A DNA stretch of 64,000 bases, taken from assembly GCA_963778555.1 (NCBI GenBank), contig CAVZUR010000003.1:21067-85066 (forward strand), written 5' to 3'. The notes under the pieces were generated by a model that did no database searches, had not been told where the DNA came from, and worked only from the letters and a program-made list of their open reading frames with translations. This DNA is from Candidatus Moraniibacteriota bacterium. Its GTDB lineage: Bacteria; Patescibacteriota; Minisyncoccia; Moranbacterales; UBA1568. How positions within the stretch are numbered: the first letter of the stretch is position 1; each line of letters begins with the position of its first letter. Made by a program: the position numbers and the translations under genes. This document shows, one piece after another, positions 13,025 through 63,946 of this stretch.

Positions 13025-13075
13025 TGAACCACTCTATCACGCACAAAGTCGGGGTGTCAACCCCGTTAGAAACGC
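13025..13075 (-). promoter_or_regulatory. Putative ftsZ promoter: GTTTCTAACGGGG-TTGACA-18nt-TAGAGT, with the -35 embedded in a GGGG..CCCC hairpin
   Basis: Read on the minus strand ~55 nt upstream of the ftsZ ATG. The same upstream element recurs at 23520-23573 with TTGACC-17nt-TAGACT. Confidence 0.4.
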
Positions 13076-13172
13076 GGTTTTCCCCTGAAAGTGAAGCTCT
13101 TTCCAGGTACTTCATCATCCTCTCAAAAGAACGGGTTGCGTTCGTACATTTCTAACGGGGCAAGAAATCCCC

Positions 13173-23372: not shown

Positions 23373-23519
23373 GTTTGCAGTTTACCCCGTTAGGCAACTT
23401 TGAACAATCGATAGATGGAGACAGAATTACTCCTATAACCAGGTACCTGTGGGGGGCTCAAGGCTTTCAAGGCTGTCTAACGGGGTGAATCAAAAAATGC
23501 TCAGGAGCAGCAATTTTCG

Positions 23520-23573
23520 AGCAAAAATAGTCTACCAGAAGGAAGGGGTCGGGTCAACCCCGTTAGAAACACC
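23520..23573 (-). promoter_or_regulatory. Putative promoter: GTTTCTAACGGGG-TTGACC-17nt-TAGACT
   Basis: Second copy of the hairpin/GTTAGAAAC element in a -35/-10 context, minus strand, upstream of the Zn-ribbon/rplY genes. Confidence 0.35.
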
Positions 23574-51540: not shown

Positions 51541-51576
51541 TATACCACCCCACCAATGTATTGGTGGGGTGGTATA
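51541..51576. promoter_or_regulatory. 36-bp near-perfect palindrome TATACCACCCCACCAAT-gt-ATTGGTGGGGTGGTATA in a divergent intergenic region
   Basis: 17-bp perfectly complementary arms. Sits between the divergently oriented genes 50855..51517(-) and 51662..52234(+). Confidence 0.4.
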
Positions 51577-54144: not shown

Positions 54145-55682
54145 GTGGTTGACCAAAGCCGCGTGTTAGACTGGAAATATATGCATACGACGCTTCCGGA
54201 GCCTATCTTTGAAACGCTCACCGCCTTGGAGCAGGCCGGTTTCAAAGCATACATCGTGGGCGGATCGCTCCGCGACCTCCTTCTCGGACGGCCACCCAAA
54301 GACTGGGACCTCACGACTGACGCGCAGCCTGGAGCGGTCCAAAAGCTCTTTCCCGATTCGGTATACGAAAATACCTTTGGCACGGTCGGCGTGAAAGTCG
54401 CCCGTTTTCTCCCTTCGACTCCAGACACACATGAGCACGACATTATCGAAGTGACGACCTTTCGGACTGAGCGTACGTATAGCGATGGACGGCATCCCGA
54501 TACCGTCGCATTCGTCACCACCGTCGAAGCAGACCTCGCGCGACGTGACTTCACTGTGAATGCGATGGCGGGGCAAGTCACTGGAACGGCTGGCTCAGTC
54601 AATATTGAAATTATCGATCCTTTTGGAGGTCAGAGCGATATTCAGAAAAAACGCTCCGCGCCGTCGGTAAACCCGAGGAACGCTTCACAGAAGATGGACT
54701 GCGTCTCATGCGCGCACTTCGACTGGTCGTGGAACTGAGCACGGCCGAAAAGGAGCGGCCGGACTGGTCCATCGAAGCGGAGACGGCGGCGGCGCTTCAA
54801 GCGTGCTCGAACCGGCTGCAGTCAGTCGCTTTCGAACGGATTCGGGATGAATTTTCACGTATCATTCTTTCACCGTATCCGAGCCAAGGTGTAACGCTTC
54901 TCTTGGAAACTGGACTCCTCCAATACATCATTCCTGAGCTCGTCGAGGGCGTCGGCGTCACACAGAACCTCCACCATATCTATACCGTCTGGGAGCACAA
55001 TCTTCGCGCGCTCGCGACATGTCCGTCTCAGAAGCTATCCGTCCGTTTGGCGACGCTCCTCCATGACGTCGGCAAACCGAGGACGAAGCGTGGCGAAGGC
55101 CATAACTCGACGTTCTATAATCACGACCATGTCGGTGCACGCATGACGAAGAAGATCCTCGAGCGCCTACGCTACCCGAAAAAAATCGTTGACCATGCTG
55201 CCATGCTCGTCGATAACCACCTCTTCTACTACAATGTCGGCGAAGTGACAGAAGCCTCGGTCCGGCGACTCATCAAACGCGTGGGTTTGGAAAATATGGA
55301 TGATCTCATGGCTGTGAGAATCGGCGATCGCCTCGGTTCCGGTGTTCCGAAAGCGAAACCCTATAAGCTCCGGCATCTCGAATACATGGTCGACAAAGTC
55401 TCACAGGATCCAACCTCCGTAAAAATGCTCAAGATTAACGGGTCCCAACTCATGGAAAAACTCGGTATCGTGCCCGGACCGAAGATCGGCGCGTTGCTCG
55501 ACTGCCTCCTCGCAGAAGTGATCGATAATCCGACCTTGAATACCGAATCGACACTTCTTGACCGGGCCCGACAACTCATGGATAATGACCTCGATGCGCT
55601 CCGCAGTTTGGCTCAGGAGCGCATCAATACGGAGCGTTCTGCTCTCGATACAGCCATACGCGGCCGGCATCACGTCACCTGA
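54145..55682 (+). CDS. cca: CCA-adding tRNA nucleotidyltransferase with HD domain, interrupted by a frameshift in an A6 run near 54650
   Basis: Pol-beta NTase head (GGSLRDLLLGRPPKDWDLTTD) in ORF 54145..54738. Continuation ...TLRAVGKPEERFTEDGLRLMRALRL and HD domain (LHDVGK) in ORF 54708..55682. Confidence 0.8.
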
Positions 55683-55845
55683 CGATTGAATTTCACCCGC
55701 TTTCAGAGGGTATAGAGGGTACCGGTCCGCTGACTGACAGCGTTTCTCTCTGTCACATTTCCGGGGCATAACCCCGTGAGAAACTGACTCCGTGAGAAAA
55801 TTATCAGAGGATTAACAGCGCGAGAATTGTGAGATTTTTTCTAAC

Positions 55846-55915
55846 GGGGCATAGTATAGTGGTAGTACATGCGCTTCGGGTGCGTAAGGTCTGGGTTCGA
55901 TTCCCGGTGCCCCGA
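55846..55915 (+). tRNA. tRNA-Pro (anticodon CGG)
   Basis: Acceptor GGGGCAT/GTGCCCC, anticodon stem TGCGC/GCGTA with loop TTCGGGT, T-arm CTGGGTTCGATTCCCGG. Parallels the tRNA-Pro(GGG) at 5397. Confidence 0.75.
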
Positions 55916-55983
55916 CTACCAATCATGTGATGGGGGAAGAATCTGCTGATCATCGCAAAAACCAGCGCTGCTAATTTGAAAGT

Positions 55984-56307
55984 TTGTTTTTTGTCATGCG
56001 ACTCCTCATTAGAAATCCCGCTGATAATCCGGTCACCCTCTTTCGGCGGGCGGGTTACGGCTTCCAACGAGAGGATGGGAAGGAGATGAGCTTCGTTCGT
56101 CCCTTGGCTCGAGCCGGCTACCCGCGCTTCCACTGTTACACGCAGTCTCATCCTGAGGGCATCGAATGCAATCTCCATCTCGATCAGAAACGGGAGACCT
56201 ATGGACGTGTCACGCGCCATCATGGCGAGTACACTGAAGAGGGGGCACTGGCTGCGGAAATTGAGCGCATCGAATCCCTCATCGGAACGCTGACACGTAT
56301 TGCTTGA
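55984..56307 (+). CDS. Hypothetical small protein (107 aa) embedded in the tRNA cluster
   Basis: ORF between tRNA-Pro and tRNA-Leu. His/Cys-containing; no recognisable family. Confidence 0.3.
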   Translation: MFFVMRLLIRNPADNPVTLFRRAGYGFQREDGKEMSFVRPLARAGYPRFHCYTQSHPEGIECNLHLDQKRETYGRVTRHHGEYTEEGALAAEIERIESLIGTLTRIA

Positions 56308-56462
56308 ATCCCCCAAGAAGCATCTCCTGGGGATGAGGAATGCGGCCCATCTGGAAATGCCGAAGCGACAGAATGGTCGTGTTGCCCCATTACTCATTTA
56401 CAAAAAGATACTGTAGCCCTGCTGTGGTGGTGGAATGGTAGACCTGCCCGCAGTGCCAGATG

Positions 56463-56547
56463 CCGAAGTGGTGGAATGGTAGACACACCAGCCTTAGGAG
56501 CTGGGGCCCGCAAGGGCGTGAGAGTTCGAATCTCTCCTTCGGCACCA
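56463..56547 (+). tRNA. tRNA-Leu (anticodon TAG), CCA encoded
   Basis: Acceptor GCCGAAG/CTTCGGC, anticodon stem CCAGC/GCTGG with loop CTTAGGA, long variable arm GGCCCGCAAGGGCGT, T-arm GAGAGTTCGAATCTCTC, 3' ACCA. Confidence 0.85.
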
Positions 56548-56621
56548 TACAATGGCAGGCGGGCACGCCTAAGCCTTAGGAGCTAGTGCTCATACGAGCA
56601 TGAGAGTTCGAATCTCTCCCA
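56548..56621 (+). other. tRNA-Leu-like 3' segment (CTTAGGA loop, variable arm, T-arm, CCACAGC-A-CCA). Its matching 5' acceptor half GCTGTGG lies at 56421-56427, upstream of the complete tRNA-Leu.
   Basis: Perfect 7-bp complementarity between 56421-56427 and 56612-56618. No local 5' acceptor strand. Confidence 0.35.
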
Positions 56622-56766
56622 CAGCACCAGAAAGGTAAGTGATACAGCAAGCCAACCTGAGAAGCAGGGACCAGCAAGGACCGTAAGGGTTCGGATGCCT
56701 CCTTTGACGTCAAAAAGAAGAGAACTTCCATTTTTTTGGGAAGCTCTCTATCTTTGGAAAGAGGTC

Positions 56767-59583
56767 TTATTCGGATGCACGCCGACTCCTGACGACAGCT
56801 CCTTCCGGTGTATTGGGAATGACCGCAAACACGACGCCCGACGCAAAGAGGATGAGGAAGACCGAGAAGAGCACTTTCAGCGAGAAGAGTACTGATGCCG
56901 GGAGATAGCTTGCCACGAGAGCATAGTATTTCTTCATGCCTGACTGCGCGACCGCGGCGCCATCTGGCTGTTCCACCTGCGTATTGGAACTGAAATACTT
57001 CTCCGTCATATCCAGCGCAGAAAGCCCCCAGATATCCTCCATGGCTTGTCGCATCACCGGGCTGGGCCGATACACGGACGAGAGCGAGACATTGTAGACC
57101 GACTTTCCAATCTTGTTGGCCGGAAAGGTAACCGCATTTGCCGTTCCGAGGACCACTCCATCCACACTCCAGGAATTTTCCAGCTGGGGCGGGGTCCGAG
57201 CACCGAGAAAATCAGGCGTGAACTGAGCCGTGAGTGCGACGACATTGCCCGCGGCGGTCTCGAGAGTATCTTTGCTCAATTCCGGATATACCTGTCCATC
57301 CGTATCAACATATTGTCCAAGAGCTTTCTGCCAGACGCTCCCGACTCCAGCGTTGGGAATAATCGCGACCTCCGGTTCGACGATCTTGAAGGCTCTCGAA
57401 ATCGTGATGACTTGTTCCTGGGATACGGCACTGTTGTACGCGCCTGTGACCTGATTCGCCGTGACCGTTATCGTGAACACGTCGCCCACGCTCCCGATGA
57501 TCGGAAAGAAGTTCATGCGCACCGGGGAAGTGTCATTGCAGCCGGCCGAGACCTTGGAATTACAAACGAGCGGCTGGCCATTAATCGTCCAGTTGAAATT
57601 CGTGAGCTGCTGGTTCGGCACGCTCACCCCGATGATCTCGTTCTTGATAACACGGCATAGCTTGGTTTCGAGACGAGCCACGGATTGGGCCTCCGGTCTC
57701 GGATCCGTCGAGGTGCCAGTGCAAATCTGTCCTCCCTGATCAAGTGAAACGCGCGCTGGATCGCCGGCGACCGTCACCCGGTGAGCCAGCATGCGGTCCT
57801 GGCTCGCGTTGAATTTAACCACCACACTGCTCCGTCCGCGACGACTGGCTCCCGACGAAAAATTCTCAGCGGCATCCACCCGGAAACGGAGGTAGCCGGT
57901 ATTATTCGGGAGCGCGCCGGGCGGTATGACACCATCCGTATTGCGGATATTCAGGTTGAGCTCGACTTTGTTCACGCCATTCCCGCGCACTTGGGACAGA
58001 AGCTTCCGGCCATTCGAAAGGTTGTTGAGTTGATTCGTGATATTCACCCAGGGATTGTTGGCCGGGGGATTCGAGGTTCCGTCCGGAGAAATCTCCACAC
58101 GCCAATCAAAATACACATCCTGCATGCCCTGCGCGCCATTATCAATCGAGGCTACCGCTTCCAAAACATCACCATCACCCTGCTCGCTCGTATCATTGAC
58201 GGGATCGTCTGGCGAAGCTGAGACGGAAAGTTCCAGATTCGTCGCCTGCCCACCTTCGGTCGGATCGACGAGATTCTCGATCAGACAGTCGTTCAAATCG
58301 ATCTCGATCGTCGGTATCACGATGGAATAGCCTTCAATGATTTTCGTGTAGGAACCGGTATCATTTGGGCGGCGGCAGCCGGATGTCTTATTCTTGGAAA
58401 AAGCCCACATAATCATATTCGATGAGTCCTTATGCTTTGTCGGAACCATCGACGTCCCTTCTACGACAACGCCAACCTTGTCACCCTTGATATAGTTCCA
58501 GGTAAACGTCTCACGGCCAAGCCCGATGACATTGGCTTCGTCTTTATTGCCATTGTCCGAAGTATCCGCATCATTCGGATTCGTCTGCCAGAAGCGTTCC
58601 TCCCCGGCACCAAAAACACCATCCCCCGAGGTAACCCCGGGTGCTACCGGAAACAGGTGTCGGCAGATGGGATTCGGCGGGGTACCGGAACTCGTGCAGG
58701 CAGTGATTGGCGTCTCACAGGTGGTCGCCCGGGCCGCATTCGCAACGCAACAGGGCGTGCCCGTGGTACATCCCACGACTCCCGCATCACCGCCTGCTGG
58801 ATCAGGATCGCAATAAGGCGTACCCGAGACATAGAAGGCGCCGCTCCCGACTCCCGTGAAGGGGACGCCGCTTACATTGGGATCAATCACGGTCGGAGTC
58901 ACGTCTTGTCCTTCTTGCATGCACACCGCTACGGATCCACTCGGACAGCCATCAAATGCAATGCTCGATGACCCGATAGCGATCTCATAGTTCTCGCCAT
59001 TCGTATTATCATGAAAAGCGCAATGGTTCGGGACGTTCACTCGATTATCTCCGCCAAACCTTGCCGCGTAACCATCCGCATCCGTATCCGCACCGTAATT
59101 TGCCGTGAGAACATCGAAATCATTGGAGGCCAATATCCGATGGGCGGCGATTTTCCAGTCATTGGGACCAATAAGGCCATTGCCGTCAAGATCGCAATCG
59201 GCTGTCACCGCGCCTGTCGCACAGACGGCTCGCTGCAGATACCAGGTAAAATATAGTTTACTTGTATCTGTTGAAAAATACGTCGGGAAAGAACGTGCCG
59301 TGACCTTTTCACCCTCCTTTGGGTCAGACGGCGAAAAGAAGAGCGATACCTCCGGCGAGACTTTTTTCCCGCCCGCGACATTGAGCGACTCGCCCTGATC
59401 CTGCATCGCGCCCGGATTGATGTGATAACGCTGTTCCATCTCCGCGGCGTTCTGTGAGGCCGAGGGAACACTCGGCGATCCAAAGAGCGCGGCCGCTGGC
59501 AGTGCAGAAGTCAGGAATATCTGCAGACCCAGCACACCACTGGCCAAGCGGAACCACTTTTTATTTTTCATGCGACTCAGCAT
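56767..59583 (-). CDS. Large (938 aa) Cys-rich surface protein with signal peptide and C-terminal TM followed by an RSRR tail
   Basis: N-terminal signal (WFRLASGVLGLQIFLTSALPAAALFG). Gly/Thr/Cys-rich regions. C-terminal TM then RSRRASE. Confidence 0.7.
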   Translation of the reverse strand: MLSRMKNKKWFRLASGVLGLQIFLTSALPAAALFGSPSVPSASQNAAEMEQRYHINPGAMQDQGESLNVAGGKKVSPEVSLFFSPSDPKEGEKVTARSFPTYFSTDTSKLYFTWYLQRAVCATGAVTADCDLDGNGLIGPNDWKIAAHRILASNDFDVLTANYGADTDADGYAARFGGDNRVNVPNHCAFHDNTNGENYEIAIGSSSIAFDGCPSGSVAVCMQEGQDVTPTVIDPNVSGVPFTGVGSGAFYVSGTPYCDPDPAGGDAGVVGCTTGTPCCVANAARATTCETPITACTSSGTPPNPICRHLFPVAPGVTSGDGVFGAGEERFWQTNPNDADTSDNGNKDEANVIGLGRETFTWNYIKGDKVGVVVEGTSMVPTKHKDSSNMIMWAFSKNKTSGCRRPNDTGSYTKIIEGYSIVIPTIEIDLNDCLIENLVDPTEGGQATNLELSVSASPDDPVNDTSEQGDGDVLEAVASIDNGAQGMQDVYFDWRVEISPDGTSNPPANNPWVNITNQLNNLSNGRKLLSQVRGNGVNKVELNLNIRNTDGVIPPGALPNNTGYLRFRVDAAENFSSGASRRGRSSVVVKFNASQDRMLAHRVTVAGDPARVSLDQGGQICTGTSTDPRPEAQSVARLETKLCRVIKNEIIGVSVPNQQLTNFNWTINGQPLVCNSKVSAGCNDTSPVRMNFFPIIGSVGDVFTITVTANQVTGAYNSAVSQEQVITISRAFKIVEPEVAIIPNAGVGSVWQKALGQYVDTDGQVYPELSKDTLETAAGNVVALTAQFTPDFLGARTPPQLENSWSVDGVVLGTANAVTFPANKIGKSVYNVSLSSVYRPSPVMRQAMEDIWGLSALDMTEKYFSSNTQVEQPDGAAVAQSGMKKYYALVASYLPASVLFSLKVLFSVFLILFASGVVFAVIPNTPEGAVVRSRRASE

Positions 59584-60963: not shown

Positions 60964-63261
60964 TTAGGGGTTTTGGGCGTCGAACTCTTTCTTGGCATCC
61001 TCGATTTCGAGCAATTGGCGCGGGTCCGACGTGATGATCTGGTCCTCGCTGTACGACGCGATGACCTTGATCGCTGCATGCTTGGTCCCCGCAAAGAAAA
61101 TGCCTTCGCCGACATTCGATTCGAGCAGCAGGAATTTCTCATGATCGGTGAGATAGAACGTCTCCGTGATGAAATCGATCGAGGCGGGCGACTGACGCAA
61201 GAGGAGCTGCATCGACGAGTTCGTGATAATCGGCTTGCCGTAGCGCGACGACATGAAGTCGCTGATGTCCTGAGTGATGGTCGTGAGCCCGGTGTAGTAC
61301 TTGCGGCAGCGTTTGGCGATACCGAAGAGGAACGAGGCCGCGTCTTCATTCTGCATCATAATCCACGCCTCATCCACGACAATGATACGCTGGCGGAGCT
61401 TCGAACGGATGTCGTTCCAGATGTATTGCAGAATGATGTACATAGCCACCGGCCGCAGCTCCTCCTCAAGATCACGGATATTGAAGACAACGAGCTGATT
61501 GTCAGTATCGATATTCGTCTGCTGATTGAGAAAGCCAGAGAAAATACCTTCCGTGTACCGCTGGAGCCGGGCAGCGATCGAGTCCGCCCCTTCCATATTC
61601 TTCAGCACCGCGTACAAGTCTGACATCGTGGGGAACGATTGGGCCGTCAGGGATTCGAAATTCGAATCCTCATGGATATCGCGGATAGCGTACGCCTCAT
61701 GGATGGCTTGGTCGAGAATCGAGTCCTCCTCGGCTGACAGGGTTCCCAGCATTAGATGCAAGAGTCCGATGAGGTTGGCAATCGTATTGCGGAACACGCC
61801 GTCTCCCTCATCCTCGCCCGCGACTTTCGGCATATCGAACGGATTGAGGTGGACCTCGGAATTCAAGGAGATCTTCAAGAAAGCGCCCCCCACCGTTTCA
61901 CAGAGATGTTTGTACTCATTTTCCGGGTCGATGATGATCACACTCGATTCGAACATGAGCGCCCGCAACACCTCGAGCTTCACGGTATAGCTTTTTCCGG
62001 CGCCGGACTTGGCGAAGACGACCATATTCGCATTCTCCATCTTGAATCGGTCAAAGAGAATGAGGGAATTATTGTGACGGTTAATGCCATACAGGATACC
62101 CTCGTTCGAAGACAGGTCCGAAGACACGAATGGCAGCGTCGTCGAGAGCGGCTCGGTATTGAGATTATTGGCAACGTCAAGCGCGTCGTTGCCCAAAGGC
62201 CGCGTCGATGCGAAGCCGTCGTCCATCCGCAACACGGCTGTTTTGGTATAGACCAGCTGGGCTTCGAGGATCGCTTCTACCGACTGCACTTTCTGACCGA
62301 GATCCTTCTCGTCGACACCATACAGCATCATATAGAGCCCGAAGCGGAAAAACTTCTCCGTCCCCTGCTGAAGACGATCGCGCAGCTCTTCGATATTCTG
62401 GAGGGCCGCCTCGAGCACCGGGTCGCGGATCTTTCCGTCTTCGATTTCGATGTTCAGCTGGGACTGCACCTGGGTGGCGGATTTCCGGAGCTGCTTCAGG
62501 ATCTCGGCGGTTTCAATCGGATGAATGAAGAGCGCTGTGTCCATCGGAAAATCCAAATTGATAATCGGTGAAAACCAGTTAGTGGAAAGGAAGCGTGGGT
62601 AGGCAATCACGAACAAGGTGCGCGCCACGACATCGCCGATCTGTATCGTCGCGGGACTGACTCGAATCGCTGGTGGAGCAATCAAGTCTTTGATCGTCGC
62701 CAAACCTTTCTGATAGAGGGCTTCCGTCTCGGCGCTCTCACTCTTCACTGGCGCCGCTTTTTCCTTGAACATCCCTGAAAAGAGGTTCTTCTTGGCGGGT
62801 GTGGCAGCCCGTTTGTCATCCGCTGCAAACGCCTCGGTGGCAGCCGTCTTGGCCCACCCCATCCGATCATCCGCCGCCGGACGAGCGAGGTCGTCGAGAT
62901 CCGGAACCGCGACCGATTCGCGGGGTGGCCGAGCCGCTGCGGTTCGATACGCGCCCGTGGCTGGCGCGGCCACTTCCTCAATCGGCTCCAGGACTCTCGC
63001 CGCGGCTCTCGGCAGCGGTCGAGCCGAAGCCCTCAGCGGTGCTGGGGGAACGGGGGGCAAACCGGCTACCGGTTCCCAGGAATCCTTGAGCGGCTCGATA
63101 CCTTTCGCGTTAGGCTGCGCCGAAGGCAGCGCTTGAGCAGCACTCGTCGGCCGGCGCGGCGGAACTGATAATTGACCCAGTCCGCCCGCGTTCAACGCTG
63201 ATGCTTCCTCGGAGGAGGCAGACTTTATCGGTCGGTCGAAGATGATGAGTTCGCGTCCCAT
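60964..63261 (-). CDS. virB4: VirB4/TrbE/CagE-family type IV secretion ATPase (Gram-positive-type) with ~190-aa Pro/Ala-rich N-terminal extension
   Basis: Walker A FAKSGAGKS, Walker B IIVVDEAW, conserved IAPP...YPRF N-terminal region. Start placed at MGRELIIF, 4 nt after the upstream gene stop. Confidence 0.85.
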   Translation of the reverse strand: MGRELIIFDRPIKSASSEEASALNAGGLGQLSVPPRRPTSAAQALPSAQPNAKGIEPLKDSWEPVAGLPPVPPAPLRASARPLPRAAARVLEPIEEVAAPATGAYRTAAARPPRESVAVPDLDDLARPAADDRMGWAKTAATEAFAADDKRAATPAKKNLFSGMFKEKAAPVKSESAETEALYQKGLATIKDLIAPPAIRVSPATIQIGDVVARTLFVIAYPRFLSTNWFSPIINLDFPMDTALFIHPIETAEILKQLRKSATQVQSQLNIEIEDGKIRDPVLEAALQNIEELRDRLQQGTEKFFRFGLYMMLYGVDEKDLGQKVQSVEAILEAQLVYTKTAVLRMDDGFASTRPLGNDALDVANNLNTEPLSTTLPFVSSDLSSNEGILYGINRHNNSLILFDRFKMENANMVVFAKSGAGKSYTVKLEVLRALMFESSVIIIDPENEYKHLCETVGGAFLKISLNSEVHLNPFDMPKVAGEDEGDGVFRNTIANLIGLLHLMLGTLSAEEDSILDQAIHEAYAIRDIHEDSNFESLTAQSFPTMSDLYAVLKNMEGADSIAARLQRYTEGIFSGFLNQQTNIDTDNQLVVFNIRDLEEELRPVAMYIILQYIWNDIRSKLRQRIIVVDEAWIMMQNEDAASFLFGIAKRCRKYYTGLTTITQDISDFMSSRYGKPIITNSSMQLLLRQSPASIDFITETFYLTDHEKFLLLESNVGEGIFFAGTKHAAIKVIASYSEDQIITSDPRQLLEIEDAKKEFDAQNP

Positions 63262-63265
63262 GGCG

Positions 63266-63946
63266 TTAAGAGGATTGGAGCTCAATGCCCTCGACGCTCT
63301 TGACCACGGTCGCCGCGAACATCGATGGATTATAACTATTGTACAAAAGTTCAATCAGCTCCTCGGTCTGCAGCGCGGACGCCCGGATACCCATCGGGGA
63401 CAAGCCCGCGACGATATGCTCGACACGCTGGACGAGCTGCGTCCGATAGGTATCGAACAGTTCCGCTTTCAGGCCGGCCGTCTTCTTCTGATTGAAGATA
63501 CCGCCGAGCTTGCCGACTATGCCGCCTTGGGTGTTTTCCGCCGAAGAGAACGGCACGACGACATAGAAATACTTCGACATGATATTCGAGACTTCGGTCA
63601 GATTCTTGATGAAGCTCTGGTATTCCTTCATCTGAAAGCGCAGGAGCTCATTCGGTTGCTGCGTCTCCTTGCCTTTCAAGAGCTCAATGTAGGGACCGAT
63701 GTTGAAGCGGCGGGACTGCACGACGATCTGCACCGGAAAATCGAGCGAATTTAAAAAATTCTGATACTGCGAGATGATAGCATCCTGCTCCTCGCTCGAT
63801 TTCAGATCGAAATTGATTGATGACACCAACAGGACAGCCCGGAGCGCCCCTGTCTTCAAGATGAGCACGCCGTCGCGGATTTCCTCGACATCAACATATC
63901 GCTGCGTGCTCGACCCGCCGGATTTTTTTTTCGAAAGGAGTTCCAT
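63266..63946 (-). CDS. VirB4 N-terminal-domain-like protein (VirB3/4-like), separately encoded
   Basis: 226 aa. DGVLILKTGALRAVLLVSSINFDLKSSEEQDAIISQYQNFLNSLDFPVQIVVQSRR matches the conserved VirB4/TrbE N-terminal segment pattern. No Walker motifs. Confidence 0.45.
   Translation of the reverse strand: MELLSKKKSGGSSTQRYVDVEEIRDGVLILKTGALRAVLLVSSINFDLKSSEEQDAIISQYQNFLNSLDFPVQIVVQSRRFNIGPYIELLKGKETQQPNELLRFQMKEYQSFIKNLTEVSNIMSKYFYVVVPFSSAENTQGGIVGKLGGIFNQKKTAGLKAELFDTYRTQLVQRVEHIVAGLSPMGIRASALQTEELIELLYNSYNPSMFAATVVKSVEGIELQSS

Follow-up and report, generated by a model that had tools for sequence, protein, structure and literature searches.

Two tRNA-Leu(TAG) genes are found at positions 56421-56629 of the stretch analyzed here, 64,000 nucleotides (nt) of contig CAVZUR010000003.1 from a Candidatus Moraniibacteriota bacterium (hereafter, the window), and one of them, the complete gene B, lies inside the other, gene A. 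Sequence comparison indicates that the locus is gene A interrupted by a 121-nt insert containing B, because some relatives carry an uninterrupted A gene at the syntenic site and others carry B there. As judged from these sequences, it is very probable that A no longer functions and that B has taken its place, and the arrangement is probably the outcome of gene replacement at the DNA level, in which a cassette with inverted-repeat ends and a spare tRNA gene was inserted into the resident gene and took over its function. The more specific proposal, that the cassette is a member of a family of mobile hairpin elements moved in trans, may have an even chance of being right. The nested arrangement had been recognized in a sequence-only reading of the window, and every element described there is present in the sequence. 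The analysis covered the 64 kb of the source genome and 2-15 kb per relative; the loci of the relatives (L001 onward) were reached through exact homologues of the 103-aa protein encoded to the left of the locus and were supplemented with 80 species-level genomes.

Organization of the Nested tRNA-Leu Locus

All parts of the locus lie on the forward strand. The 5′ piece of A (56421-56442) provides the acceptor 5′ strand GCTGTGG, U8/G9, the D-stem 5′ strand, and the D-loop through GGTAGA, and its sequence is GCTGTGG-TG-GTGGAATGGTAGA(C), at 56421-56442/3. The 3′ piece (56564-56629) starts with (C)ACGCC and contains the D-stem 3′ strand CAC, a damaged anticodon arm, the variable arm, the T arm, the acceptor 3′ strand CCACAGC, the discriminator A, and CCA, with the sequence (C)ACGCCTAAGCCTTAGGAGCTAG-TGCTCATACGAGCAT-GAGAGTTCGAATCTCTC-CCACAGC-A-CCA at 56564/5-56629. 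Since a C is present at both borders, the C at 56443 can be assigned to either side, which leaves a 1-nt ambiguity in the boundary. The two pieces jointly hold every part of a class II tRNA-Leu(TAG), encoded CCA included, and their acceptor strands are complementary at 7/7 positions, as the sequence-only reading had stated. That reading had also described the 5′ fragment as sharing its D-arm with the inner tRNA, which holds: the D-arms and the T-arms of A and B are identical and the anticodon loop CTTAGGA is common to both, while the variable arm of A is its own and is well paired.

The insert, or cassette (56443-56563), is composed of a left inverted-repeat arm (56443-56458, CCTG-CCCGC-AG-TGCCA), a 3-nt spacer, B, a 5-nt spacer, and a right inverted-repeat arm (56553-56563, TGGCA-G-GCGGG). 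In the minimum free energy (MFE) fold the left arm pairs with 56553-56565, and the pairing of the right arm can be extended to C56564 and A56565 of A. The CCTG tail is confined to the left arm and is lacking from the right one. The inner gene was placed by ARAGORN at 56462-56547; the end and the identity given in the sequence-only reading are thus correct, and its start at 56463 is one base too far to the right. B scores 60.8 bits against the Rfam tRNA model RF00005 (gathering score 29), all of its stems are paired in ARAGORN, and its CCA is encoded, so that it has both the clean, full cloverleaf and the covariance score above the Rfam tRNA threshold that characterize a canonical bacterial tRNA.

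Both ARAGORN and Rfam report one tRNA each in this region, namely B. The outer gene A was missed by ARAGORN with intron options and by Rfam at E ≤ 10 over 56300-56800, where nothing other than the inner tRNA and noise was returned, and lowering the ARAGORN threshold to 80% produced only a weak call at 56549-56629. The check that had been proposed with these two tools therefore recovered the inner tRNA and not the outer gene. The MFE fold of 56415-56635 (-89.9 kcal/mol, z = -2.76) is made up of the outer acceptor stem, the repeat stem, the inner cloverleaf, and the outer variable and T arms. A scan of 56250-56800 for sigma-70 promoters and terminators detected none, which says little for an organism of the Candidate Phyla Radiation (CPR).

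Inverted Repeat and Borders of the Insert

The flanks separating the A pieces from B are 19 nt (left) and 16 nt (right) long and pair with each other. Their imperfect inverted repeat, CCTGCCCGCAGTGCCA / TGGCAGGCGGG, had been noticed around the inner tRNA, and it is longer than was described, comprising 12 bp in two blocks: TGCCCGC (56445-56451) pairs with GCGGGCA (56559-56565), and the additional block TGCCA (56454-56458) pairs with TGGCA (56553-56557). The repeat duplex has an energy of -21.0 kcal/mol, a value equalled by 31 of 5000 composition-matched shuffles, and the flank duplexes of the other three tRNAs in the window reach merely -2.4 to -4.9 kcal/mol. The insert thus possesses terminal inverted repeats, which are among the defining features of MITEs (miniature inverted-repeat transposable elements) and of REPINs, the hairpins built from repetitive extragenic palindromic (REP) sequences. 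There is no target-site duplication at the insert, because the borders GGTAGA/CCTG... and ...GCGGG/CACG restore the orthologous sequence apart from the 1-nt ambiguity, and alignment of the joined halves with eight intact orthologues shows that A neither loses nor duplicates bases at the insert. No open reading frame (ORF) is present in its 121 nt.

The flank patterns of the insert are unique in the window, and the pattern of flanks plus B gave 0 matches in public metagenome and viral collections. The outer T-arm and acceptor were also searched for as an exact sequence in 185,579 species genomes, again with 0 matches. A pattern search for a D-arm interrupted at the same base returned a single match, an unrelated 5′ tRNA-Leu fragment, GCCGAGGTGGTGGAATGGTAGAC, at 5768-5800 of L017, a JGI metagenome contig. 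The fragment ends at the same D-arm base and is followed by unrelated sequence and a region with an XRE-like regulator; a tRNA 3′ fragment lies just upstream, and ARAGORN calls no tRNA there.

State of the Outer Gene

When the two halves of A are joined (56421-56442 + 56564-56629), the resulting 88 nt are called as tRNA-Leu(TAG) by ARAGORN, with a damaged anticodon stem; as a test of splice sites the program is too permissive, since about 600 of 1184 artificial joins also yield some tRNA call. The anticodon stem is damaged in its 5′ strand by two extra bases (C at 56568/9 and A at 56571/2), where the window has CACG-C-CTA-A-GCC and the intact A genes have CACGCTAGCC. Both extra bases are absent from 8/8 intact A genes, the stem is CTAGC in all of them, and the only difference in L077 is at the base that immediately precedes the stem. 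In the ARAGORN structure, the joined A shows an A.A mismatch, one G.T pair, and a 3-nt linker at position 26, compared with five clean pairs and one linker base in the orthologue; it therefore lacks the intact 5-bp anticodon stem and the single base 26 of its orthologues, by which a canonical tRNA would be recognized. One further substitution relative to L001 is found in the variable loop. Over the same divergence between the window and L001, tRNA-Pro(CGG) has 0 differences in 72 nt and the neighboring protein gene has 81.7% DNA identity. Taken from the sequence, gene A appears to be under relaxed constraint and decaying, and it looks dead.

No signature of an intron accompanies the interruption. 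The group I and group II intron models of Rfam have no match in the window at gathering thresholds, nor at E ≤ 10 in 56300-56800, and no bulge-helix-bulge motif, in which 4 bp separate two 3-nt bulges, was seen at the junctions, either by eye or in the MFE fold, which shows a continuous 7+5-bp helix with an AG/G internal loop and abutting exons. The suggestion implied earlier that the outer gene works as a split or intron-bearing tRNA finds no support, given the two lineage-specific extra bases in the anticodon stem, the missing intron signature, and the intact companion with the same anticodon beside the broken copy in the comparable cases of the relatives.

Alleles at the Same Site in Relatives

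In the closest relatives, L001 and L002, whose neighboring protein is 90% identical to that of the window, the site is occupied by a single uninterrupted tRNA-Leu(TAG), GCTGTGGTGGTGGAATGGTAGACACGCTAGCCTTAGGAGCTAGTGCTCATCCGAGCATGAGAGTTCGAATCTCTCCCACAGCACCA, which corresponds to the outer pieces of the window joined at GGTAGA/CACG, that is, at the boundary between D-loop and D-stem. An uninterrupted A allele is found at the syntenic site in L001/2, L003/4, L009/10, L015/16, L019, L021, and L025, and the same allele is also carried by L077. The 5′ piece of A is identical over 22-23 nt in L001, L003, L009, L015, L019, L021, and L077, and in L025 one D-loop base is different. In L005-L008 and L013-L014, the only tRNA-Leu(TAG) at this site is the B allele. 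With uninterrupted orthologues in eight relatives and an exact join, the idea of a second tRNA-Leu interrupted in its D-loop by a tRNA-bearing insert is supported at the DNA level. An ordinary tandem pair in related genomes, with a mis-join in this assembly, had been named as a refutation; the relatives have one ordinary tRNA-Leu and not a tandem pair, and a mis-join could not resume the gene at the exact base.

Most of the 80 species-level loci have a single tRNA-Leu(TAG) after the 103-aa gene, and the acceptor stems vary widely across loci (GCTGTGG, GCCATGG, GCCGAAG, GCCCAGG, GGGCAGG, and others). Across L018-L097, at least ten acceptor-stem variants occur in closely related genomes, all of them fully compensated, and the D-arm, anticodon loop, and T-loop are nearly constant. 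This variety would fit repeated replacement of whole genes over stepwise compensatory mutation. L018 is the reverse of the window: its intact gene is a third allele (acceptor GCCATGG), and behind it stands a B-type 3′ relic that begins at the same CAC, with ...GACGGGGCAGG in front of the relic.

Nested tRNA Genes in Other Genomes

Further nested genes were sought as T-arm and acceptor relics that lie outside called tRNAs and have a complementary acceptor strand upstream. The cases share a common architecture, consisting of an outer 5′ part, a repeat arm, an intact inner tRNA with the same anticodon, a repeat arm, and an outer 3′ part, and the outer acceptor strands are complementary in all of them. 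A tRNA-Pro inside a tRNA-Pro is found in L021 and L094, and two nestings occur in L052, a tRNA-Val inside a tRNA-Val and a tRNA-Pro inside a tRNA-Pro. In L037, tRNA-Leu(CAG) is doubly nested, with outer acceptor GCCGACG, middle GGGGATA, and intact GGGCACG, and the 3′ relics stand in mirror order. The cases closest to the window are L069 and L076, in which a tRNA-Leu(TAG) is inserted into a tRNA-Leu(TAG) at GGTATA/CRCG, the position used in the window, so that the insertion point GGTAKA/CRCG is used in three genomes whose resident alleles differ.

In each of these cases an inverted repeat with related ends surrounds the inner tRNA, and the ends can be compared directly. The terminus of the left arm in the window is similar to the YCCCRGCAC termini of elements in L018, L021, L037, L069, and L076. 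For the window they are GGTAGA / CCTG-CCCGCAGTGCCA ... TGGCAGGCGGG / CACG, for L076 GGTATA / TTTA-TCCCGCACCAAAATTTAAG ... CTTAAATTTTTGTTGCGGGA / CACG, and for L069 GGTATA / TTTA-CCCAGCACCAAATTT ... AAATTTTGGTGCTGGG / CGCG; the right arm of the window is comparable to the right ends ...GCGGGG-CAGG in L018, L069, and L076. The outer insert of L037 has the ends TTCA / CCCCGCACTAACTTTAAA ... TTTAAAGTTAGTGCTGGGG-CAAG / GGT and its inner insert TTCA / TCCCAGCACTATCCT ... AGGATAGTGCGGGA-CAAG / GGT, those of L021 are TTCG / TCCCGTCACATTT ... AAATGTGACGGGA-CGAG / GGT, and in L018 only the right end, ...GACGGGG-CAGG / CACC, is present.

For the D-loop cases, removal of the inserts gives a normal tRNA call in L069 (three inserts), in L076 (two), and for the tRNA-Val of L052. 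For the anticodon-loop cases (L021, L037 twice, the tRNA-Pro of L052, and L094), no excision restores a 7-nt loop. An intact tRNA with the same anticodon lies inside or next to each tRNA copy found to carry a hairpin or palindrome, L093 being the sole exception; dead interrupted copies would be expected to have such a companion, and spliced ones would not. At L071:1845-2060, a tRNA-Leu(TAG) carries a 40-nt double-hairpin insert in the T-loop (TGTCAGGTCATTCGACCTGAC-GCCCGGTCGGATGACCGGGC) and its 3′ end is missing; an intact tRNA-Leu(TAG) of another allele lies downstream, as another mode of the same turnover.

Hairpin Elements and GIY-YIG Reading Frames

Related termini of the form 5′-YCCC(R)GCAC...GTGC(G)GGGR-3′, with a 4-nt tail (CAGG, CAAG, or CGAG; reversed, CCTG) on one end, were found in L018, L021, L037, L052, L069, L076, and L094, and of the window's own cassette no further copy turned up. 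In L069 and L076, 'empty' hairpins of 35-45 nt delimited by the same ends and tail occupy the D-loop and anticodon loop of the outer genes (inserts 1 and 3 of L069 and insert 1 of L076; for example, CCCCGCACTAG...CAGTGCGGGG-CAAG). Perfect leader-trailer stems of at least 10 bp surround 14 of 145 distinct tRNA contexts, compared with 2 of 725 shuffles, and 12 of these 14 start with a CCC-type terminus.

The window also holds intergenic inverted-repeat elements, at 13061-13167, 23385-23490, and 23477-23570, of the form CCCCGTTAGAAA...TTTCTAACGGGG followed by CAAG (or TGAA). These elements, CCCCGTTAG...CTAACGGGG+CAAG at 13061-13167 and 23385-23570, have interiors of 70-83 nt that are not tRNAs, and their terminus and 4-nt tail match the hairpin family of the nested tRNAs, for example the flanks CCCCGTTAAAT of tRNA-Pro in L086. 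A tRNA-Pro(CGG) bracketed by a 10-18-bp inverted repeat (TCCCGTCACA / TGTGACGGGA) is present in nearly all close relatives (L001:1313-1417 and equivalents); at the corresponding place in the window (55845-55941), the right repeat arm alone survives (ATGTGATGGGGGAAGAA, 55925-55941). The outer part of this repeat is TTCTT/AAGAA in L001 and L003 and TTTAT/ATAAA in L015, with complementarity kept, and tRNA-Pro(CGG) is nested in an older tRNA-Pro copy in L019 and L021.

A second hairpin type is the 20-nt perfect palindrome CCTGCCTGCCGGCAGGCAGG, which occurs in 8 of 97 loci, almost always in the D-loop (AATT/GGTA) or T-loop of truncated tRNA copies, with an intact tRNA of the same anticodon close by. 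It was located, together with close variants, at L037:981, L038:1860, L039:179/332/1802, L040:750, L044:738/1349, L056:2/974, L074:2024, and L082:1951, and also in L098-L132. The exact 20-mer is found in 35 stretches of IMG/VR, mostly of 60-68% GC and mostly outside tRNAs; in L122 it adds an arm to the variable loop of a tRNA-Met that is otherwise complete and still called by ARAGORN. The halves of the palindrome are similar to the window repeat ends CCTGCC... and ...GGCAGG. An origin as a sequencing adapter was rejected, as the palindrome is not known to match any adapter and the placement in tRNA loops is consistent across independent projects. A third hairpin type of 45 nt, CCCGCCTCG...CGAGGCGGG, follows the D-stem GTGG at L093:1880-2050 and L037:925-975; at L093 alone, no intact tRNA-Leu(TAG) was detected beside the broken copies, the last of which lacks the 5′ acceptor strand.

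Short ORFs of the GIY-YIG family (77-80 aa; Pfam PF01541, E = 1e-13 to 1e-17) were identified at L038:1934-2170, L040:794-1027, and L057:~1966-2205. In L038 and L040 the ORF (E about 1e-16 to 1e-17) separates a broken tRNA-Leu from an intact tRNA-Leu(TAG), and in L057 it stands just after a tRNA-Leu(TAG). A weaker tblastn match (about 32-33% identity) was obtained at L061:1362-1568, upstream of a tRNA-Leu(TAG). These ORFs could be homing endonucleases that target tRNA genes. In tblastn with the L038 and L040 proteins, the matches were confined to L038, L040, L057, and L061, and none was found in the 64-kb window.

Genomic Setting

The gene order up to the locus is IF-2, CCA-adding enzyme, tRNA-Pro(CGG), the 103-aa hypothetical protein, and the tRNA-Leu locus; to the right, on the opposite strand, follow a 938-aa protein with no Pfam match, a CAAX-type protease, and a VirB4/TraG-like ATPase. 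The 103-aa gene (55996-56307, forward strand), which lies outside the element and served as the left synteny anchor, has 568 homologues, and where these are named by source, all belong to Candidatus Moranbacteria or Moraniibacteriota within the CPR. The right anchor, likewise outside the element, is the 938-aa gene (56767-59583, reverse strand), whose orthologues of 932-981 aa stand at the same place in L003, L005, L012, L013, and L015. No record was returned for the 938-aa and 103-aa proteins of the window when they were looked up by exact sequence. The TraG/VirB4 P-loop protein is encoded at 60964-63354, about 4 kb downstream of the locus. Both flanks of the locus are syntenic in relatives without the insert, and there is neither a larger island nor an integrase.

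In the window, a frameshift near residue 156 divides the gene for the CCA-adding enzyme into two overlapping ORFs (54145-54738 and 54708-55682), and in the relatives it is one gene of 500-501 aa. The split may reflect an error in sequencing, a pseudogene, or programmed frameshifting. An encoded CCA is absent from 3 of the 4 intact tRNAs of the window (Pro-CGG, Ser-GGA, and Pro-GGG) and is present in both tRNA-Leu copies. A 17-bp perfect palindrome with a 2-nt center, TATACCACCCCACCAAT-AT-ATTGGTGGGGTGGTATA, is located at 51541-51576.

Proposed Gene Replacement and Its Alternatives

In the proposed course of events, the ancestor would have had one A-type tRNA-Leu(TAG) between the 103-aa gene and the ~940-aa gene, and the 121-nt cassette would have entered A between A21 and C22. 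Transcription would then start upstream of A, from whatever promoter had served A, RNase P and 3′-end nucleases would free B with its encoded CCA as the expressed, functional copy, and the A fragments and repeat arms would be discarded, leaving A to decay. The insertion would be cheap for the cell because the cassette brings a tRNA with the same anticodon. Inner and outer anticodons would always be shared because uncompensated damage to another essential tRNA would be lost by selection. The cassette may move as a unit by means of an enzyme acting in trans, the candidates being a hairpin-acting transposase and break repair that a homing endonuclease stimulates. Its family would comprise empty (20-45 nt) and tRNA-loaded members that enter tRNA loops without target duplication, and the empty hairpins and CCTGCCTGCCGGCAGGCAGG would be stripped-down relatives of the loaded cassettes. 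Repeated rounds would give Russian-doll tRNA genes, as in L037, and serial replacement would explain the divergent tRNA-Leu(TAG) acceptor stems among closely related genomes. In the widest form of this proposal, which we advance tentatively as slightly short of an even chance, Moranbacteria and perhaps other CPR bacteria harbor an undescribed class of 'self-compensating' hairpin-ended cassettes of ~100-160 nt, which have a complete tRNA gene as their sole cargo and insert base-precisely into the loops of a tRNA gene with the same anticodon.

The reading that the insertion killed A and supplied a substitute fits the ancestral state in the relatives, the exact borders, the damage to A, the anticodon-loop cases that cannot be restored, the shared anticodon, and the near-absence of interrupted copies as sole copies. 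What suggests the extension to a mobile family is that termini are related, that empty copies exist, that insertion is base-precise, and that one site is reused in three genomes. Several points weigh against these readings. The two extra bases of A could have been added by the insertion event itself and not by later decay, the working status of B is presumed, and every sequence compared is a metagenome assembly. The outer gene of L069 is perfect despite three insertions, which fits recency and fits selection as well. Mobility is read from the family likeness of termini of 8-12 nt, identical copies being absent from the window and from the metagenome and viral collections, and no mobilizing enzyme was found, the 121-nt insert having no ORF and the tblastn searches having been run with GIY-YIG queries only, with no transposase search made. 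Moreover, the conserved, complementary stems around tRNA-Pro hint at structures under selection in RNA or DNA, a pre-tRNA processing helix for example, instead of transposon ends.

The last point leads to the main rival, which we consider unlikely, namely a one-off repair, in which a break in A, possibly made by a GIY-YIG homing endonuclease, was patched by a captured fragment carrying B together with its native leader-trailer helix. The repeat would then be a pre-tRNA processing stem and not a transposon end, and A would still be dead and B still the working copy. The tRNA-Pro repeat is conserved and apparently covarying, as a functional helix would be, GIY-YIG ORFs stand between or beside broken and intact tRNA-Leu genes in L038, L040, L057, and, more weakly, L061, and the breakpoints of the relics are varied (D-loop, anticodon loop, variable arm, and T-loop), which is more like imprecise repair than like the use of one integration site. 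On the other side, no GIY-YIG gene is detectable by tblastn in the window, the insertion is base-precise with GGTAKA/CRCG reused in three genomes with different resident alleles, and the capture of a fragment leaves unexplained the 'empty' tRNA-less hairpins with the same termini in the tRNA loops of L069 and L076. A further reading, which we regard as very unlikely for the window, keeps the outer gene functional, either through a tRNA-encoding 'intron' or as a two-half split tRNA; after the release of B, the halves would be held by the repeat helix and be either ligated or used as a split tRNA. In a bolder form, some tRNAs with precise D-loop or variable-loop interruptions may conceivably mature at the RNA level. 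The layout is like that of the split tRNA genes of Nanoarchaeum, in that the 5′ half is followed by a GC-rich stretch with complementarity to the 3′ half's leader, the predicted fold unites the halves, the insertion points are loops of the folded tRNA, the outer acceptor stems are always complementary, and the D-loop inserts of L069, L076, and the tRNA-Val of L052 can be removed precisely, leaving a flawless outer gene in L069. Opposed to this are the damaged outer anticodon stem of the window, unlike 8/8 intact orthologues, the anticodon-loop cases of L021, L037 (twice), L052 (tRNA-Pro), and L094 that cannot be restored to a 7-nt loop, and the lack of a bulge-helix-bulge at the junctions (by eye and by fold) and of a group I or II intron signal in Rfam. 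The outer gene would also be redundant, as the inner anticodon is always the same, and interrupted copies are practically never the sole copy (L093 being the exception). We know of no tRNA-splicing endonuclease in bacteria.

The replacement of A by a cassette is also to be compared with two explanations that we judge extremely improbable. The tRNA-Leu genes are classic integration targets, and the locus might be the integrase scar of an island, phage, or conjugative element, with a possible tie to the VirB4/TraG-like gene at 60964-63354; the stacked 3′ tRNA fragments in some relatives (L037) would agree with such a history. An integrase scar would leave direct repeats of the tRNA 3′ part around an island, whereas here the pieces are complementary, nothing is duplicated, and 121 nt lie between them; furthermore, there is no integrase, and the flanking genes are syntenic in relatives without the insert. 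The duplication or integration scar proposed in the sequence-only reading is accordingly right in spirit as to integration and wrong as to an att-site scar of an integrase. The other explanation is an assembly chimera of co-occurring strains with the A and B alleles. The contig is metagenome-assembled, both alleles circulate in related populations and share identical stretches of 17-19 nt in the D-arm and T-arm, and a suspicious NN-containing duplicate is seen in L057. A chimera would be expected to switch alleles inside a shared stretch and would not explain the novel complementary flanks of 18 and 17 nt and the exact resumption of A, and the same architecture recurs in independent assemblies of other projects (L021, L037, L052, L069, L076, and L094). 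Two more candidates were rejected: a tandem duplication with two deletions, which needs independent deletions leaving exactly complementary halves, and a group I intron, against which stand the missing Rfam match and the size of the insert, just 121 nt, 86 of them tRNA.

Relation to Known Systems and Implications

The cassette can be placed beside several systems in which mobile DNA meets tRNA genes. Phages, integrative and conjugative elements, and islands that integrate into tRNA genes also have a tRNA target, offset the damage with sequence of their own, and leave a piece of the old gene behind. They differ in being kilobases long, in using a tyrosine or serine integrase, in supplying only the 3′ part of the tRNA, and in the direct repeat at the island ends; the window insert has 121 nt, no ORF, a whole tRNA gene, inverted-repeat ends, and two non-overlapping halves of the old gene. 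Group I introns of bacterial tRNA-Leu, tRNA-fMet, and tRNA-Arg likewise interrupt a tRNA gene with mobile DNA that spares the host, and they are at least 200 nt long, self-splicing, located in the anticodon loop, and matched by Rfam, unlike the 121-nt insert with its spare gene at the border of D-loop and D-stem.

REP/REPIN elements, MITEs, the Rickettsia palindromic elements, and the GC-rich PstI palindromes of Neurospora mitochondria are small non-coding hairpins that form families with conserved termini and are presumably moved in trans. The REPs have a conserved tetranucleotide beside the stem, like the CAGG/CAAG tail described here, and the Neurospora palindromes are associated with tRNAs, whereas MITEs make target duplications and the window insert shows none. 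To our knowledge, no element of these kinds carries a complete tRNA gene in its loop or inserts into the loop of a tRNA with the same anticodon. The archaeal tRNAs, namely the halves of Nanoarchaeum equitans and the multi-intron genes of Thermoproteales with apparently mobile mini-introns, rely on a bulge-helix-bulge and a splicing endonuclease and give functional products. They share with the present loci the interruption of D-, anticodon-, variable-, and T-loops, the GC-rich complementary adjoining sequences, and short related inserts at many positions; the window locus differs in belonging to a bacterium, in having no bulge-helix-bulge by eye or by fold, in its damaged outer gene, and in the intact tRNA of the same anticodon inside. 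SegB of phage T4 is a free-standing GIY-YIG enzyme encoded in a tRNA cluster and drives the preferential inheritance of the linked tRNA region. GIY-YIG ORFs similarly adjoin tRNA-Leu in L038 and L040 and lie near the locus in L057 and L061, but tblastn finds none in the window, and SegB homing leaves no nested genes. A literature search for tRNAs that are nested, interrupted, or carry introns, in the CPR or elsewhere among bacteria, yielded nothing relevant, which, with incomplete coverage, is weak evidence of novelty; a paper on Thiomargarita was rejected as a precedent since it concerns group I introns and MITEs.

The tRNA genes are among the most conserved genes and are usually held to change slowly through paired compensatory mutations. 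The locus suggests another route, in which a whole gene is replaced by a tiny insert carrying a spare tRNA, and it preserves what may be the intermediate state, with A still recognizable around B. The tRNA relics could be useful as markers of ancestry and of horizontal exchange between populations, and standard tRNA finders, which overlook the outer copies, may miscount the tRNA sets of CPR bacteria. The associated hairpins and GIY-YIG nucleases point to enzymes that recognize tRNA-gene DNA specifically. If the mobility of the cassette is true, it would represent a new way for selfish DNA to spare its host, by means of a full replacement gene, in contrast to introns and inteins, which splice out, and to integrating phages, which rebuild the 3′ end of the tRNA only.

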